Positions 5,768 to 10,882 of a stretch of DNA of 38,423 bases are shown one piece after another. Source of the DNA: a virus (lineage: Duplodnaviria > Heunggongvirae > Uroviricota > Caudoviricetes); the IMG/VR virus record IMGVR_UViG_2778261634_000009, positions 1 to 38,423 of that record. One strand, given 5' to 3'. Both the position numbers and the translations under genes were made by a program. Every line of letters begins with the position of its first letter. Position 1 is the first letter of the stretch. The notes under the pieces are model-generated. The model did no database searches and was not told the origin of the DNA. It worked only from the letters and a program-made list of their open reading frames with translations.

Positions 5768-5880
5768 ATATCACCCCTCATACAGTGGTTTGCTGCTTAA
5801 TTTAATTTTCTGGCGACCAACACAAGTCACACCCATTTCACTGCGTGGCTTGCGGTAGTAAATACGGTTATTTATGTAAT

Positions 5881-5903
5881 AAAAAACCCGCCTTAGCGGG
5901 TTA
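5881..5903 (-). terminator. intrinsic terminator immediately after the first pL gene (tL1-like)
   Basis: Minus-strand RNA reads UAA UAA CCCGC-UAAG-GCGGG UUUUUU: GC stem, 4-nt loop, U6 run, starting right at the stop codon. Confidence 0.6.
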
Positions 5904-6347
5904 TTATTTCTTTGGATTTAGCTTTTCCATGTTCTCTGCGATCGTACCTATTCTTGACCTTATTGTTGGAACATCAATTCCTCTCTGTATGTCTACATTT
6001 AAAGACATAAGCTCTCTGCTCCATCCTGCGATCGCATCGTGAAATTGCCTTGCCCTGCTTGCTTGTCTACGTCTGCTGCTTTCAAGCTCTGTAAGCATTT
6101 GCTTTGCTTCGATCTGAGACTTGCCTTGCCCAACTCCCAATGCATCGATTGCACATTGCTTCATCTCTGCTTTTATCAAAGGGTGAAGATTTTCAGCGCC
6201 AATAAAAATTACCTCGTCTATGCTTTTAAAAAGCAGAAGGCAATCAGTAACAACTTTGGTTCTTTTATCATCACACCTTACCTCTACCGAAGGTACGCCG
6301 CCATATTGCTTAACTCTCATTGCCGTATAAACTGTAGCACTCTTCAA
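5904..6347 (-). CDS. hypothetical 147-aa protein, first gene of the leftward early operon (N position), TTG start
   Basis: TTG start at 6347 preceded by AAGGAGG with 5-nt spacer; followed directly by an intrinsic terminator; no N-terminal arginine-rich motif, but an internal arginine-rich segment SSRRRQASRARQFHDAIAGW. Confidence 0.6.
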   Translation of the reverse strand: MKSATVYTAMRVKQYGGVPSVEVRCDDKRTKVVTDCLLLFKSIDEVIFIGAENLHPLIKAEMKQCAIDALGVGQGKSQIEAKQMLTELESSRRRQASRARQFHDAIAGWSRELMSLNVDIQRGIDVPTIRSRIGTIAENMEKLNPKK

Positions 6348-6504
6348 ATCAGCCTCCTTTTTCTTTTTCTATATCAAAAAGCTGCTTTGCTTTTTGTGAC
6401 TAAAAGCAAAAAAGCCTTCTCGCTAATGAGCAGCATTGCCGTTCATCCTGAACCCGCCGCGCTCCCGACGCATGGTTTAATGTCGCGCCGTTCGACATGG
6501 CTTA

Positions 6505-6538
6505 ACTATATCCAAAGCTATTATTGCTGTAAATAGCT
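6505..6538 (-). promoter_or_regulatory. OL operator and candidate pL promoter
   Basis: Inverted repeat AGCTATT-N9-AATAGCT at 6516..6538; on the minus strand a -35 TTTACA (6533..6528) and -10 TATAGT (6510..6505) with 17-bp spacing overlap it. Confidence 0.5.
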
Positions 6539-6630
6539 ATAGTTATAAAATAACTACTTTGGTTATTTAGTCATTGATATCTAATGTAATTTATTTTTCT
6601 TGTATGTGAGATTTGGTGTTTTTTGGGCAA

Positions 6631-6654
6631 TAAAAAACCCGCAAAAGCGGGTTT
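6631..6654 (-). terminator. intrinsic terminator downstream of cI
   Basis: Minus-strand hairpin AACCCGC-UUUU-GCGGGUU followed by U6, about 20 nt after the cI stop and before OL/pL. Confidence 0.65.
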
Positions 6655-6671
6655 GTTGTGGTGTGATGAGG

Positions 6672-7403
6672 TTAGTAGTCAACTACAGACCACCAGAAGA
6701 TTCTTCCGATGATCTCTATATCGCTTAGATTCTTTTCTTCTTGTGGGTATTCCAGTGAGTTAAAGCTTCTAATGCTTACCTTGTCAGGCCCTGATCGAAA
6801 GAGAATCTTAATGCGTTTCCAGCCGTTCTCGTTAATGGCGTAAATCTTTCCGTCAACTATTTTCTTATCGTTGGTGTTAACAGCAACTGTTGTTCCATCA
6901 GGAATGTTTGGCTCCATGCTGTTGCCACGAGCCGGAAAACAAACAACCCCGCTTCCATCACTGTTCGCGCCAACTCTGCGAAGGGTTGATTTGGAAAAGC
7001 GCAACATAAAGCCGTTGTGATCTTCATCAATCACCCGACCATCCCCGCATGCAAACTCAATATCTTTAAGGTAAGGAATTTCAACTTCATCACCTCTTAA
7101 AGGCGTTCCTCCATCCCATGGGTCCAAATATCCCCACGTGCTTTCATGAGGAATAGAAGATTTTGGATTATAAGGTTCAACTCCCTCATCACGCATTGGC
7201 CCAGTTCCATCGGAAAGCCATTCCGTACGAACTCCAAGCACTTTTGATATTTCAAAAAGTTTGCGCGTATTGCGTGTTTTTCCAGACGTAAGTTTCCAGA
7301 CGCTTGGCTGAGACATGCCAACAGCATTGCCAAGTGAAGCCTGAGTAAAACCAGCCTGATCCATCGCGTATGTAAGCCTTTGAGAAAAAGTATCTAGTTT
7401 CAT
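6672..7403 (-). CDS. cI: CI-type prophage repressor (N-terminal HTH, C-terminal LexA/S24-like autocleavage domain)
   Basis: 243-aa ORF; XRE-type HTH (FTQASLGNAVGMSQPSVWKL) at the N-terminus and a C-terminal S24 peptidase-like region; divergent from cro across an operator region. Confidence 0.9.
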   Translation of the reverse strand: MKLDTFSQRLTYAMDQAGFTQASLGNAVGMSQPSVWKLTSGKTRNTRKLFEISKVLGVRTEWLSDGTGPMRDEGVEPYNPKSSIPHESTWGYLDPWDGGTPLRGDEVEIPYLKDIEFACGDGRVIDEDHNGFMLRFSKSTLRRVGANSDGSGVVCFPARGNSMEPNIPDGTTVAVNTNDKKIVDGKIYAINENGWKRIKILFRSGPDKVSIRSFNSLEYPQEEKNLSDIEIIGRIFWWSVVDY

Positions 7404-7409
7404 TCGGAT

Positions 7410-7483
7410 AACCTATAGCTACAGCTATTATTAGTCAAATACCTAAAGCTATTTACTTTCTGAATAGCTTTGGCTATTATTCT
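7410..7483. promoter_or_regulatory. OR operator region with candidate pRM (leftward) and pR (rightward) promoters
   Basis: AGCTATT-N9-AATAGCT at 7447..7469 mirrors the OL site; additional GCTATTATT repeats; pR -35 TTTACT (7452..7457) / -10 TATTAT (7475..7480); pRM -35 TTGACT and -10 TAGGTT on the minus strand placing the start near the cI ATG (leaderless, as in lambda). Confidence 0.5.
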
Positions 7484-7511
7484 GATTGTGAATTCAGCAG
7501 GAGTTATTTTT

Positions 7512-7742
7512 ATGGTTAACAAGGCTATTAAAGCGGCTATTGACTCAGTAGGAAGTCAGCAAAAGTTAGCTGATGCCTGCGGTGTTAAGCAGCCGTCTGT
7601 ATGGGCTTGGTTGCATGGGAAGAAAAGGGTATCCGCTGAAAATGCCAAGCGCATTGAAATGGCTACCAATGGAAGCGTCCCTGCATACCTGATTCGCCCT
7701 GATTTATCCGCTTTGTTCCCCAATCCGAACAAAGCAGCTTAA
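7512..7742 (+). CDS. cro: Cro-type repressor
   Basis: Start at internal Met of track ORF 7470..7742, AGGAG 9 nt upstream; 76 aa with HTH (QQKLADACGVKQPSVWAW); divergent from cI. Confidence 0.8.
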   Translation: MVNKAIKAAIDSVGSQQKLADACGVKQPSVWAWLHGKKRVSAENAKRIEMATNGSVPAYLIRPDLSALFPNPNKAA

Positions 7743-7861
7743 TAAAGCAAATTTTTATACCGAACGGCCCGGTATACGGTCGGGTGCCCGGCGTGGTCAT
7801 GGATGACTGTCAATGGTGCACAATAAAAAACCAAATTATTTACCTATGGAAATAGTAAGAA

Positions 7862-8158
7862 ATGGAACAAACAAGTTACAGCAAACTATCACAGCGCGAC
7901 GTTGATCGCGCAGAAACAGATTTACTCATCAACCTGTCAACGCTTACCCAGCGCGGTCTGGCAAAGATGATTGGCTGTCATGAATCGAAGATAAGCAGAA
8001 CGGACTGGAGATTTATTGCTTCGGTCTTGTGTGCTTTCGGAATGGCATCAGACATCAGTCCGATTAGCAGGGCTTTTAAGTATGCGCTTGATGGACTCAC
8101 AAAGAAAAAACGCCCGGCGGCAACCGAGCGTTCTGAACAAATCCAGATGGAATTCTGA
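7862..8158 (+). CDS. cII: CII transcriptional activator
   Basis: 98-aa ORF whose C-terminus KKKRPAATERSEQIQMEF matches lambda CII as remembered; HTH in the middle; immediately downstream of cro. Confidence 0.85.
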   Translation: MEQTSYSKLSQRDVDRAETDLLINLSTLTQRGLAKMIGCHESKISRTDWRFIASVLCAFGMASDISPISRAFKYALDGLTKKKRPAATERSEQIQMEF

Positions 8159-8190
8159 GGTCATTACTGGATCAATCCACAGGAGTAATT

Positions 8191-8835
8191 ATGACATACG
8201 AAAATGACAAATTCCAGGTTCTGAAGAGCATGAAGGTGCCAGATGATTTTAAATCAAATGGCTTTGTTTATGTGCTTTCGAATGAGTGCATGCCAGGAAT
8301 TTATAAGATTGGGATGACTAAGCATTCACCAGAAGTTAGGGCTAAAGAAATTTCAGCCTCTACTGGCGTTCCTAAGCCATTTAAGGTGATAGCAGCCTTT
8401 CATTCAAATAATCCAGCATCAGATGAAAAACTCATTCATAAAGCCTTTGCAAAAGAGAGGCTTAGTGATAATCGAGAGTTTTTCAAGCTTGAAGATAATG
8501 AGCTTTCTGAATCTCTAAATGAAATAAGGGCGCTGGTTGGCCCTGAAAGAAATGGCGAGACGGCAGAATACGCAATTTACGACGCATTCATTTCTTTTCG
8601 CCATGAAAATGAGCTTGATCTTAATGAGGAGCTTATAGAGCAAGGTCTGGGTAGTGTAGTTGGTCATCTTCCTGCGGTGAAAAATTTCCTTATTCGCGCC
8701 GGAATTGATTACGCGAAGCAACTGATAAGCAAATATAACTCATCGATAGTTATTAATACAGATGGCAGTGTGGTGATGGTTAAGTCTCTTGAAGCCCAAT
8801 GCTTTGATGCGGAGGTTGGAAATGAGCCTGGCTGA
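8191..8835 (+). CDS. T5orf172 / MUG113 (GIY-YIG-like) domain protein
   Basis: 214-aa ORF; GFVYVLSNECMPGIYKIGMTKHSPEVRAKEISASTGVPKPFKV...NREFFKL fits the T5orf172 domain pattern; visibly AT-rich compared with flanking cII and O; 3' end overlaps the O start. Confidence 0.7.
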   Translation: MTYENDKFQVLKSMKVPDDFKSNGFVYVLSNECMPGIYKIGMTKHSPEVRAKEISASTGVPKPFKVIAAFHSNNPASDEKLIHKAFAKERLSDNREFFKLEDNELSESLNEIRALVGPERNGETAEYAIYDAFISFRHENELDLNEELIEQGLGSVVGHLPAVKNFLIRAGIDYAKQLISKYNSSIVINTDGSVVMVKSLEAQCFDAEVGNEPG

Positions 8836-10799: not shown

Positions 10800-10882
10800 C
10801 CATCTACATCACTGAGCTAATAACAGGGGCTATTTACACAGTAGCCCTTTTTTATTGGATTAAGAGCGAGGGGTAAGTACCG

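Follow-up and report, generated by a model that had tools for sequence, protein, structure and literature searches.

A 16-bp dyad as the probable operator unit in the immunity region of an HK022-like prophage of uncharacterised specificity

Two copies of a 23-bp inverted repeat, AGCTATT-N9-AATAGCT, lie on either side of a cI-type repressor gene in the 38,423-nt stretch of viral DNA analyzed here (the window). The preliminary description took this repeat to be the operator of an immunity region, which raises the question of what a repressor dimer would recognize at this locus. We consider it very probable that the locus is an HK022-like prophage switch with an uncharacterised specificity, in which the unit bound by a dimer would be a 16-bp dyad and the 23-bp repeat would consist of the inner halves of neighboring dyads.

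The immunity region and its HK022-like surroundings

The cI gene on the minus strand is divergent from cro on the plus strand, which is followed by cII, the gene order expected of a lambdoid switch.

6635..6654, minus strand: terminator-like hairpin and T-run after cI
6672..7403, minus strand: cI-type repressor, 243 aa, with a 434-like helix-turn-helix (HTH) domain and a Peptidase_S24 autocleavage domain
7512..7742, plus strand: Cro, 76 aa, YdaS / P22_Cro HTH family; helix 3 starts with QPSVW like that of cI
7862-8158, plus strand: cII (Pfam Phage_CII)

The Pfam domains of cI are HTH_3 and Peptidase_S24. Its N-terminal domain matched the 434 repressor in a phmmer search (PDB 2r63, 1per and 1r69; E = 3e-8 to 1.5e-7), with residues 6-68 spanning the match to residues 2-63 of the latter, and Q17, Q28 and R43 of 434 correspond to Q21, Q32 and R47. 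Autocleavage is predicted from an Ala/Cys-Gly cleavage site and a Ser/Lys dyad: all 29 homologues in the alignment keep A118, G120, S162 and K199, and C119, which sits between A118 and G120, is not listed among the invariant residues. The serine and lysine are 37 residues apart, as they are in LexA and UmuD.

A promoter scan located pL on the minus strand (TTTACA-17-TATAGT, 10/12, 6533..6505) and pR on the plus strand (TTTACT-17-TATTAT, 7452..7480), and a putative pRM reads toward cI.

6505..6510, minus strand: pL -10, TATAGT, at the position of the annotated HK022 pL -10
6528..6533, minus strand: pL -35, TTTACA, corresponding in position to the annotated HK022 pL -35
7410..7415, minus strand: putative pRM -10, TAGGTT, 6 nt upstream of the cI ATG (leaderless)
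7433..7438, minus strand: putative pRM -35, TTGACT, abutting OR2
7452..7457, plus strand: pR -35, TTTACT
7475..7480, plus strand: pR -10, TATTAT

The flanks of this region resemble HK022. Nucleotide homology to HK022 ends at 6504, beside the pL -10, and resumes at 7753, and three elements annotated in HK022 are present outside the divergent segment.

6428..6490, minus strand: antiterminator RNA element putL, downstream of pL; 63 nt align with the annotated HK022/O276 putL at 96.8% identity
7765..7821, plus strand: putR antiterminator RNA element, 98.2% identical to the annotated O276/HK022 putR
7871..7884, minus strand: cII-binding box and pRE -35, TTGC-N6-TTGT, identical to the annotated HK022 oE / pE -35

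Thus putL (97%), putR (98%), the cII/pRE region (91%) and the TTTACA -35 of pL are shared with HK022 (X16093), in which TGTAAA is present at the pL -35 position, and the OL sites described below lie where those of HK022 do with respect to the pL -10 and -35. In contrast, the annotated 15-bp TGAAC-N5-GTTCA operators of HK022 are replaced by a different operator sequence, and cI and cro are replaced as well. HK022 encodes Nun, whereas no Nun homologue is found here, the 147-aa ORF at the nun position showing no similarity to Nun. The locus therefore has the put elements of the HK022 type and lacks its operators, cI/Cro and nun. An Rfam scan of 5800-8300 returned two sub-threshold chance matches, with no put family in the library.

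Two 23-bp repeats and six 16-bp dyads

The repeat is present as an exact copy on the OL side, AGCTATTATTGCTGTAAATAGCT at 6516-6538, and on the OR side, AGCTATTTACTTTCTGAATAGCT at 7447-7469. These are the only two matches in 38.4 kb, even when up to 2 mismatches are allowed (0.15 expected), and none of 100 shuffles of the window reached two copies. With 12 copies in the window, the half-site AGCTATT exceeds the 5.1 expected, and 5 of these copies lie inside the two intergenic regions. GCTATTATT is found at 6517-6525, 7424-7432 and 7473-7481. The preliminary description was right that the half-sites recur at both positions and that further copies lie nearby, and its reading of AGCTATT as the recognition element is supported. 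The promoter scan also bore out its statement that the repeats overlap the -35 hexamers of pL (TTTACA) and pR (TTTACT). Its word "mirrored" is apt, since the minus strand of OL and the plus strand of OR align without a gap in one block order: operator 2, TTTAC, a gap and operator 1.

However, the operator unit itself probably has to be redrawn. The half-sites pair across two nucleotides into 16-bp dyads, and the binding unit is most likely WATAGCY-N2-RGCTATW with the 14-bp core ATAGCY-NN-RGCTAT. Six such candidate sites can be placed, and each 23-bp repeat joins two of them.

6507..6522: OL1, AATAGCT-TT-GGATATA on the pL strand, overlapping the pL -10 and spacer
6532..6547: OL2, AATAGCT-AT-AGTTATA, overlapping the pL -35, 25 bp from OL1
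6552..6567: OL3 (weak), AACTACT-TT-GGTTATT, 20 bp from OL2, placed by position
7414..7429: OR3, TATAGCT-AC-AGCTATT, within the pRM spacer and -10
7438..7453: OR2, AATACCT-AA-AGCTATT, overlapping the pR -35, centered 42.5 bp upstream of the cI ATG
7463..7478: OR1, AATAGCT-TT-GGCTATT, overlapping the pR spacer and -10
6516..6538: 23-bp repeat at OL, inner half of OL1, 9-bp gap and inner half of OL2
7447..7469: 23-bp repeat at OR, right half of OR2, 9-bp gap and left half of OR1

These sites, their spacing and their overlap with the promoters are read directly from the DNA. The OR centers are 24 bp (OR3-OR2) and 25 bp (OR2-OR1) apart and the OL centers 25 bp (OL1-OL2) and 20 bp (OL2-OL3). At ≤1 mismatch the dyad has 3 matches in the window, all at OR (0.02 expected); at ≤3 mismatches 5 of 9 matches are OL and OR sites. 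The remaining dyad-like matches, at 10819, 17777, 18621 and 34964 (2-3 mismatches), lie outside regulatory regions, are near the chance level (1.84 expected in the whole window) and were discarded. OL1 is identical to OR1 at 14 of 16 positions, and OL3 of the window has 5 mismatches to the dyad. With three dyads each at OR and OL, which overlap pR, pRM and pL, the arrangement is that of a lambdoid switch. The preliminary assignment to an immunity region, in which OL/pL and OR/pR/pRM accompany a cI-like repressor and Cro, is thereby supported.

Nor would the operator spacing be unusual, as had been supposed: a dyad of 14-16 bp is of ordinary size among lambdoid phages (434, 933W, HK022). The operator of 933W is 15 bp, and in that phage consensus strength need not match affinity (PMC3317979). 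The outer half-sites overlap the -10 hexamers of pR, pL and pRM, and their conservation could for this reason be partly promoter-derived.

Conservation in related prophages and the choice of binding unit

For comparison we collected 12 loci whose cI proteins are 62-82% identical to that of the window and carry helix 3 QPSVWKL. A contig search with cI gave 4 loci only, and the set was built through twelve exact-protein look-ups; the Serratia symbiotica locus L013 no longer has an OL side and does not enter the OL statistics. Three OR dyads are present in 12 of 12 loci, with centers 24 bp (25 bp in L007 and L017) and 25 bp apart, and three OL dyads in 11 of 12, with centers 25 and 20 bp apart. 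The third OL dyad is 20 bp from OL2 in 10 of the 11 loci having OL and 18 bp in L011, and OL1 is the same site at the same position in 11 related loci. The N2 spacing is constant in the 12 prophages, the gaps between sites being 4, 8 or 9 bp. The repeats are conserved where the repressor is shared, so the proposal survived the test that it had set for itself, namely loss of the repeats in phages with the same repressor.

The putative pRM is conserved as well. TTGnnn-17-TAnnnT lies 6-7 nt from the cI ATG without a Shine-Dalgarno sequence in 11 of 13 loci, in agreement with the leaderless-style pRM proposed earlier; the exceptions are L007 (18-bp spacer) and L017 (16-bp spacer, 8 nt from the ATG). 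TAnnnT is found 6-8 nt from the ATG in 13/13 loci, and the 13 loci conserve pRM together with an OR2 whose center precedes the cI ATG by 42.5 or 43.5 bp.

To what extent the half-sites are paired as 16-bp dyads can be judged from the spacings in 25 regions, allowing ≤2 mismatches per half. The pairs AATAGCT-Nn-AGCTATT number 60 at n=2 and ≤11 at every other spacing. The opposite pairs, AGCTATT-Nn-AATAGCT, peak at n=9 with 24, and the counts for n=14, 8, 15 and 4 are 17, 10, 10 and 7, respectively. Across 140 pooled half-sites the information content is 1.85, 1.94, 1.61 and 1.35 bits at A, T, A and C, respectively, with little at the central and flanking positions. The 14-bp operators of 434 show this same pattern, their outer bases being conserved and their center variable (PMC1636474).

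A single dimer spanning the whole 23-bp unit, with its reading heads 16 bp apart and one operator each at OL and OR, is very improbable. It would fit the two exact copies, unique in the window, the repeat at OR, to which 10 of the 12 related loci have at most 1 mismatch, and the similarity of OR2 to the reverse complement of OR1 (14/16 positions, against 12/16 in direct orientation), by which the OR2+OR1 block is nearly palindromic. Two further observations count against the N2 pairing: the OR2/OR1 and OL1/OL2 pairs show no variation in their N9 spacing either, and at OL the window has no mismatch to the 23-bp repeat but 3 (OL1) and 2 (OL2) to the idealized dyad. Yet the 23-bp unit leaves the conserved half-sites at 7414-7420 and 7472-7478 and the outer halves of OL unpaired, and the other pairs would need spacers of 4, 8 and 9 bp, whereas N2 covers 60 pairs with one spacing. 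In L008, L012 and L015 the repeat at OL decays to ≥3 mismatches because OL1 reads AATAGCT-TT-GGATATA (GGGTATA in L015), and the dyads are kept. In the Pantoea locus L006, OR3 (TATAGCC-TC-CGCTATT) stands isolated, distant from OR2, as an N2 dyad of its own. Moreover, centers 16 bp apart would face opposite sides of the helix, ill-suited to a compact 434-like HTH dimer, whose sites are 14 bp long, and one operator per promoter could not yield lambda-type autoregulation of pRM. The N9 gap is most likely held by the promoter and by the operator pitch between the consensus inner half-sites of neighboring pairs. Adjacent palindromic sites always yield a longer apparent inverted repeat from their inner halves, and this would account for the earlier reading, a plausible one.

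We think it improbable, if less so, that on top of the 16-bp sites the OR2+OR1 block (7438-7478, ~41 bp) is itself a selected composite dyad for a two-fold-symmetric repressor tetramer. OR2 is closer to the reverse complement of OR1 than to OR1 in 11 of 13 loci (a tie in L011 and L013), the central dinucleotides are complementary (AA, TT) in 12 of 13 and flip jointly to TT/AA in L007 and L017, and the inner half-sites of the window are exact consensus with weaker outer ones. But the symmetry of the pair is not conserved at OL, where OL1 and OL2 are direct copies in L008, L014 and L015, and the asymmetries under the pR -35/-10 and pRM -35 could be explained by the promoters. The OR2-OR1 block is also mostly shared by descent, leaving two or three independent lineages only. 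Many of the related loci have this block by common ancestry and are accordingly not fully independent of one another.

That the repeats are not protein operators at all, being conserved as promoters alone or as an RNA or DNA hairpin (terminator or attenuator), is scarcely credible. A terminator scan did flag 7443-7473, where a 13-pair stem precedes a T-rich tail, and the folding energy of the OR repeat as RNA is -13.3 kcal/mol for the plus strand (z = -5.3) and -11.1 for the minus strand. However, the OL copy is weak (-5.6 kcal/mol, z = -1.0, plus strand; -8.1, z = -3.0, minus strand), and the predicted starts of pR, pL and pRM are all downstream of the repeats, so that the OR copy would be transcribed only by read-through from pRE. 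After the scan and the RNA folding, a hairpin or terminator role was rejected. Promoter hexamers alone leave OR3, OL3 and the outer bases ATA...TAT unexplained. Furthermore, the half-sites covary with the recognition helices of cI and Cro, as expected of protein sites and not of hairpins.

Recognition helices, the predicted switch and related systems

Beyond the QPSVW group, the half-site changes with helix 3 of both proteins, and the N2 dyad architecture is kept. The pairs of helix 3 and half-site are as follows.

cI QPSVW / Cro QPSVW: ATAGC
cI QPAIQ / Cro QPAVH: ATAAC, two loci (L005, L020)
cI QANIQ / Cro QAAVG (phiEt88): ACAAC
cI QAGIQ / Cro QAAVQ (L021): ACAAC
cI QSSVW / Cro QSTVS: ATCG-N6-CGAT

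The prophage set could thus serve as a small natural dataset for the recognition code of 434-like repressors. A bolder reading, which we hold to be unlikely though less so than the alternatives above, would combine a specificity series on a fixed 434-like scaffold (QPSVW/ATAGC, QPAIQ/ATAAC, QA(N/G)IQ/ACAAC, QSSVW/ATCG) with the ~41-bp tetramer dyad at OR2+OR1. If true, the 23-bp repeat would be a functional signature of symmetry at the level of the pair, not a by-product.

With the 16-bp dyad as the preferred unit, the switch would work as follows. Each dyad would be read by the 434-like HTH domain of a repressor dimer. By analogy with lambda and 434, we infer that dimers bind OR1 and OR2 cooperatively and occlude the pR -10 and -35, and that dimers at OL1 and OL2 occlude pL in like manner. 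Repressor at OR2, 42.5 bp upstream of the leaderless cI start, would abut the pRM -35 and may activate pRM, and OR3 in the pRM spacer and -10 would allow pRM to be shut off at high repressor concentration. Cro, whose helix 3 starts with the same QPSVW, would also bind these sites and so repress pRM, with repression of pR and pL following later, and RecA-stimulated self-cleavage of the S24 domain would lift repression. The predicted architecture of this bistable immunity switch is otherwise textbook lambdoid.

Lambda shares with this locus the divergent cI/cro pair, a tripartite OR at 24-25-bp pitch and a cII/pRE box, as well as the position of OR1 over the pR -10, of OR2 over the pR -35 and abutting the pRM -35, of OR3 within pRM, and of OL1 and OL2 over pL. 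The OR2 center is ~42 bp upstream of a leaderless cI start in both. These lambda positions are textbook. Lambda has 17-bp operators and an OL-OR distance of ~2.4 kb. Here the operator is 14-16 bp, OL and OR are ~0.9 kb apart, the OL2-OL3 pitch is 20 bp, and the N-terminal domain is of the 434/HTH_3 type and not that of lambda cI.

Phage 434 has six 14-bp operators, ACAA...TTGT, three each at OR and OL, as there are three dyads per region here; the homologous N-terminal domain of cI, the 14-bp core and the C-terminal S24 cleavage domain are shared, and in both phages cI and Cro have the same start of the recognition helix. In contrast, neither the C-terminal domain nor the remainder of the phage is related to 434 at the nucleotide level, and Cro belongs to the YdaS / P22_Cro Pfam family. 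The half-site is ATAGC with helix 3 QPSVWKL instead of ACAA with QQSIEQL, and immunity specificity therefore differs. The locus thus has the N-terminal homology and the 14-bp dyad pattern of the 434 class without its specificity, and the repressor would work like that of 434 in another immunity group.

No characterized phage with the same cI N-terminal domain turned up in a search; the repressors of BTP1, ST104 and HK639 are among the next best from phages, which are ≤58% identical in this domain. The same immunity region, with all six sites, is present at 98-99.5% identity in Escherichia phage APC_JM3.2 (MG197996) and Wanchaivirus PDP110P2 (OZ035745). Neither record annotates operators, the genome announcement does not mention them, and a literature search on this immunity type and on the operators of the two phages found no operator analysis. 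The specificity thus appears to be a previously uncharacterised one of a well-known kind, for which probable operators, promoters and a recognition helix are now defined. Of 50,697 phage records, 2 carry an immunity region of this group, as do 31 of 5,426 complete E. coli genomes.

Inverted repeats and probable operator dyads around the repressor gene

The preliminary description proposed that the immunity-region operators are built on a 23-bp inverted repeat, AGCTATT-N9-AATAGCT. Both elements are exact (AGCTATTATTGCTGTAAATAGCT at 6516-6538 and AGCTATTTACTTTCTGAATAGCT at 7447-7469), and a search of the 38.4-kb window tolerating up to two mismatches yields no further match (0.15 expected by chance). 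AGCTATT itself is over-represented as a 7-mer (12 copies versus 5.1 expected), five of the copies lie within the two intergenic regions, and the additional GCTATTATT copies reported nearby are present. The minus strand of OL and the plus strand of OR, left and right of cI, are aligned without gaps, as expected from the described mirroring. Each repeat also overlaps a -35 hexamer because the consensus scan places TTTACA-17-TATAGT (pL) and TTTACT-17-TATTAT (pR) there. Read in the other register, the half-sites form the dyad AATAGCT-N2-AGCTATT, of which the window has three copies at up to one mismatch (0.02 expected), every one of them at OR.

Predicted operators, promoters and regulatory genes
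6507-6522: OL1, dyad
6532-6547: OL2, dyad
6552-6567: OL3, weak, placed by comparison with relatives
7414-7429: OR3, TATAGCT-AC-AGCTATT, dyad search with up to one mismatch
7438-7453: OR2, AATACCT-AA-AGCTATT, same search
7463-7478: OR1, AATAGCT-TT-GGCTATT, same search
6533..6505, minus: pL, consensus scan
7452..7480, plus: pR, consensus scan
6672-7403, minus: cI-type repressor, 243 aa, HTH_3 and Peptidase_S24 domains
7512-7742, plus: Cro, 76 aa, YdaS / P22_Cro family

The OR dyad centres are spaced 24 and 25 bp apart. At OR, the 23-bp repeat is made up exactly of two facing half-sites, the right one of OR2 and the left one of OR1, with the 9-bp gap between them; at OL, the inner halves of OL1 and OL2 combine in the same way.

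Two GGCTATT half-sites in the same orientation (7523-7529 and 7535-7541), 12 bp apart, are located in the first cro codons (K-A-I-K-A-A-I) and are conserved among relatives, probably via the protein sequence. The cro ribosome-binding region reads AAAAGCA-GG-AGCTATT in the related loci L004, L009, L010, L015, L016 and L017, with two or three mismatches to the operator dyad and ~31 bp from OR1; the window counterpart of this dyad-like Shine-Dalgarno sequence (7493-7508) is degenerate, with five mismatches. The resemblance could be a chance product of AGGAG beside GCTATT.

Conservation of the proposed operator unit in related prophages

A database search with cI returned 816 homologues, many of which keep the helix 3 sequence QPSVWKL at overall identities of 62-82%. 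We retrieved 12 QPSVWKL loci from Pseudocitrobacter, Citrobacter, Yersinia, Serratia, Shewanella, E. coli and others. Three N2 dyads are found at the same OR positions in all 12, and three OL dyads in 11, where the centre distances are 25 bp for OL1-OL2 and 20 bp for OL2-OL3 (18 bp in L011); the Serratia symbiotica locus L013 has lost OL. The 20-bp OL2-OL3 distance, a 4-bp gap, is shared by the window and 10 of the 11 related loci, against 24-25 bp between every other pair of neighbours. Gap sequences and central dinucleotides vary across loci, and the ATAGC...GCTAT bases are invariant. In the Pantoea locus L006, the OR3 dyad is isolated, far from OR2.

The 23-bp repeats are likewise kept in prophages with the same repressor, whereas the preliminary description had named their lack of conservation there as a ground for refutation; the original observation is therefore robust. 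As the operator unit itself, however, the 23-bp repeat is disfavoured: its half-site centres lie 16 bp apart, on opposite helix faces, and N2 pairing dominates the spacer histogram of 25 regions, where AATAGCT-Nn-AGCTATT pairs number 60 at n=2 and at most 11 at every other spacing (in the opposite orientation n=9 has the largest count, 24, ahead of n=14 with 17, n=8 and n=15 with 10 each, and n=4 with 7). At OL of L008, L012 and L015 the repeat has at least three mismatches, yet both dyads persist; OL1 reads AATAGCT-TT-GGATATA in L008 and L012, and its right half is GGGTATA in L015. Judged from sequence comparison, the conserved unit is the 16-bp dyad. The preliminary interpretation is partly supported: the repeats belong to predicted immunity operators, but the spacing of 23 bp that seemed unusual is an artefact of the register chosen.

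At OR there is some support for the OR2-OR1 pair as a symmetric unit, as OR2 matches OR1 at 14/16 positions as reverse complement versus 12/16 directly, and the block spanning both (7438-7478, about 41 bp) is nearly palindromic. The central dinucleotides, AA in OR2 and TT in OR1, complement each other in 12 of 13 loci, and in L007 and L017 both are reversed at once. This pair-level symmetry is not conserved at OL, however, and the independent lineages are few. That the repeats act as a hairpin is unlikely, given that the start points predicted for pR, pL and pRM all lie downstream of them and that the OL copy folds weakly.

Predicted switch and half-site recognition

OR1 covers the spacer and -10 of pR and OR2 its -35, and pL is covered likewise by OL1 and OL2. 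A putative pRM on the cI strand, TTGACT-17-TAGGTT, lies 6 nt from the ATG without a Shine-Dalgarno sequence. The pattern TTGnnn-17-TAnnnT at 6-7 nt from the cI ATG is found in 11 of 13 loci, the exceptions being L007 (18-bp spacer) and L017 (16-bp spacer and 8 nt). The centre of OR2 precedes the cI ATG by 42.5 or 43.5 bp in these loci; OR3 falls inside the putative pRM spacer and -10. By analogy with lambda and 434, and following the general account in PMC3317979, cooperative occupation of OR1+OR2 and OL1+OL2 would repress pR and pL, repressor on OR2 would activate pRM, and OR3 would serve its autoregulation. Cro would act on the same predicted sites, and RecA-stimulated cleavage at C119-G120 by S162 and K199 would lead to prophage induction. 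The immunity switch is a standard lambdoid, 434-like one on an HK022-type backbone, with binding predicted; its specificity is new and uncharacterised.

The N-terminal 68 residues of the repressor align with the DNA-binding domain of phage 434 repressor (E = 3e-8). Phage 434 has three 14-bp sites each in OR and OL, whose outer bases are contacted and conserved and whose centre is uncontacted (PMC1636474). The pooled half-sites (n=140) follow the same pattern of conserved outer bases and variable centre: A, T, A and C of W-ATAgCy-w carry 1.85, 1.94, 1.61 and 1.35 bits, and the centre and flanks little information. Residues Q17, Q28 and R43 of 434 repressor correspond to Q21, Q32 and R47 in the alignment, and Q32 presumably reads the outer adenine. 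QPSVW begins helix 3 in both cI and Cro. Among more distant relatives, changes in the half-site go along with changes in both cI and Cro, and the three-dyad N2 architecture is retained.

Helix 3 starts and half-sites in more distant relatives
L005, L020: cI QPAIQ, Cro QPAVH, half-site ATAAC
phiEt88: cI QANIQ, Cro QAAVG, half-site ACAAC
L021: cI QAGIQ, Cro QAAVQ, half-site ACAAC
L019: cI QSSVW, Cro QSTVS, ATCG-N6-CGAT

HK022-like flanks and distribution of the module

Features flanking the immunity module
5904-6347, minus: 147-aa ORF, TTG start, strong AAGGAGG upstream
6428-6490, minus: putL
7765-7821, plus: putR
7862-8158, plus: cII
7871-7884: ACAAGTTACAGCAA, cII-binding box / pE -35, TTGC-N6-TTGT on minus strand
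8191-8835, plus: T5orf172/MUG113-domain gene

HK022 homology ends at 6504, adjoining the pL -10, and restarts at 7753, so the cI-cro-operator cassette is a distinct immunity module; OL1 and OL2 sit where the annotated OL sites of HK022 sit. Since putL and putR are 97-98% identical to annotated HK022/O276 elements, antitermination in this phage is probably RNA-based and independent of N. Instead, the left arm of several relatives with the same cI has N-like genes (N_peptide Pfam matches in L012 and L016). ACAAGTTACAGCAA, inside the start of cII, is identical to the HK022 annotation, which makes a pRE establishment promoter at 7871-7884 likely.

The 147-aa ORF occupies the HK022 nun position and has neither Nun similarity nor a Pfam match; it matches phrog_13686 (unknown function), and the phiEt88 repressor has a DNA-level homologue (about 65% identity) next to it. 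The T5orf172/MUG113-domain gene is an insertion that separates cII from the replication O-like gene; L008 has a gene of this type in the same place.

Phage records and the literature yielded neither an annotation of its operators nor a paper on the immunity module. Among phage records, only APC_JM3.2 and Wanchaivirus PDP110P2 share it; among 5,426 complete E. coli genomes, 31 do.
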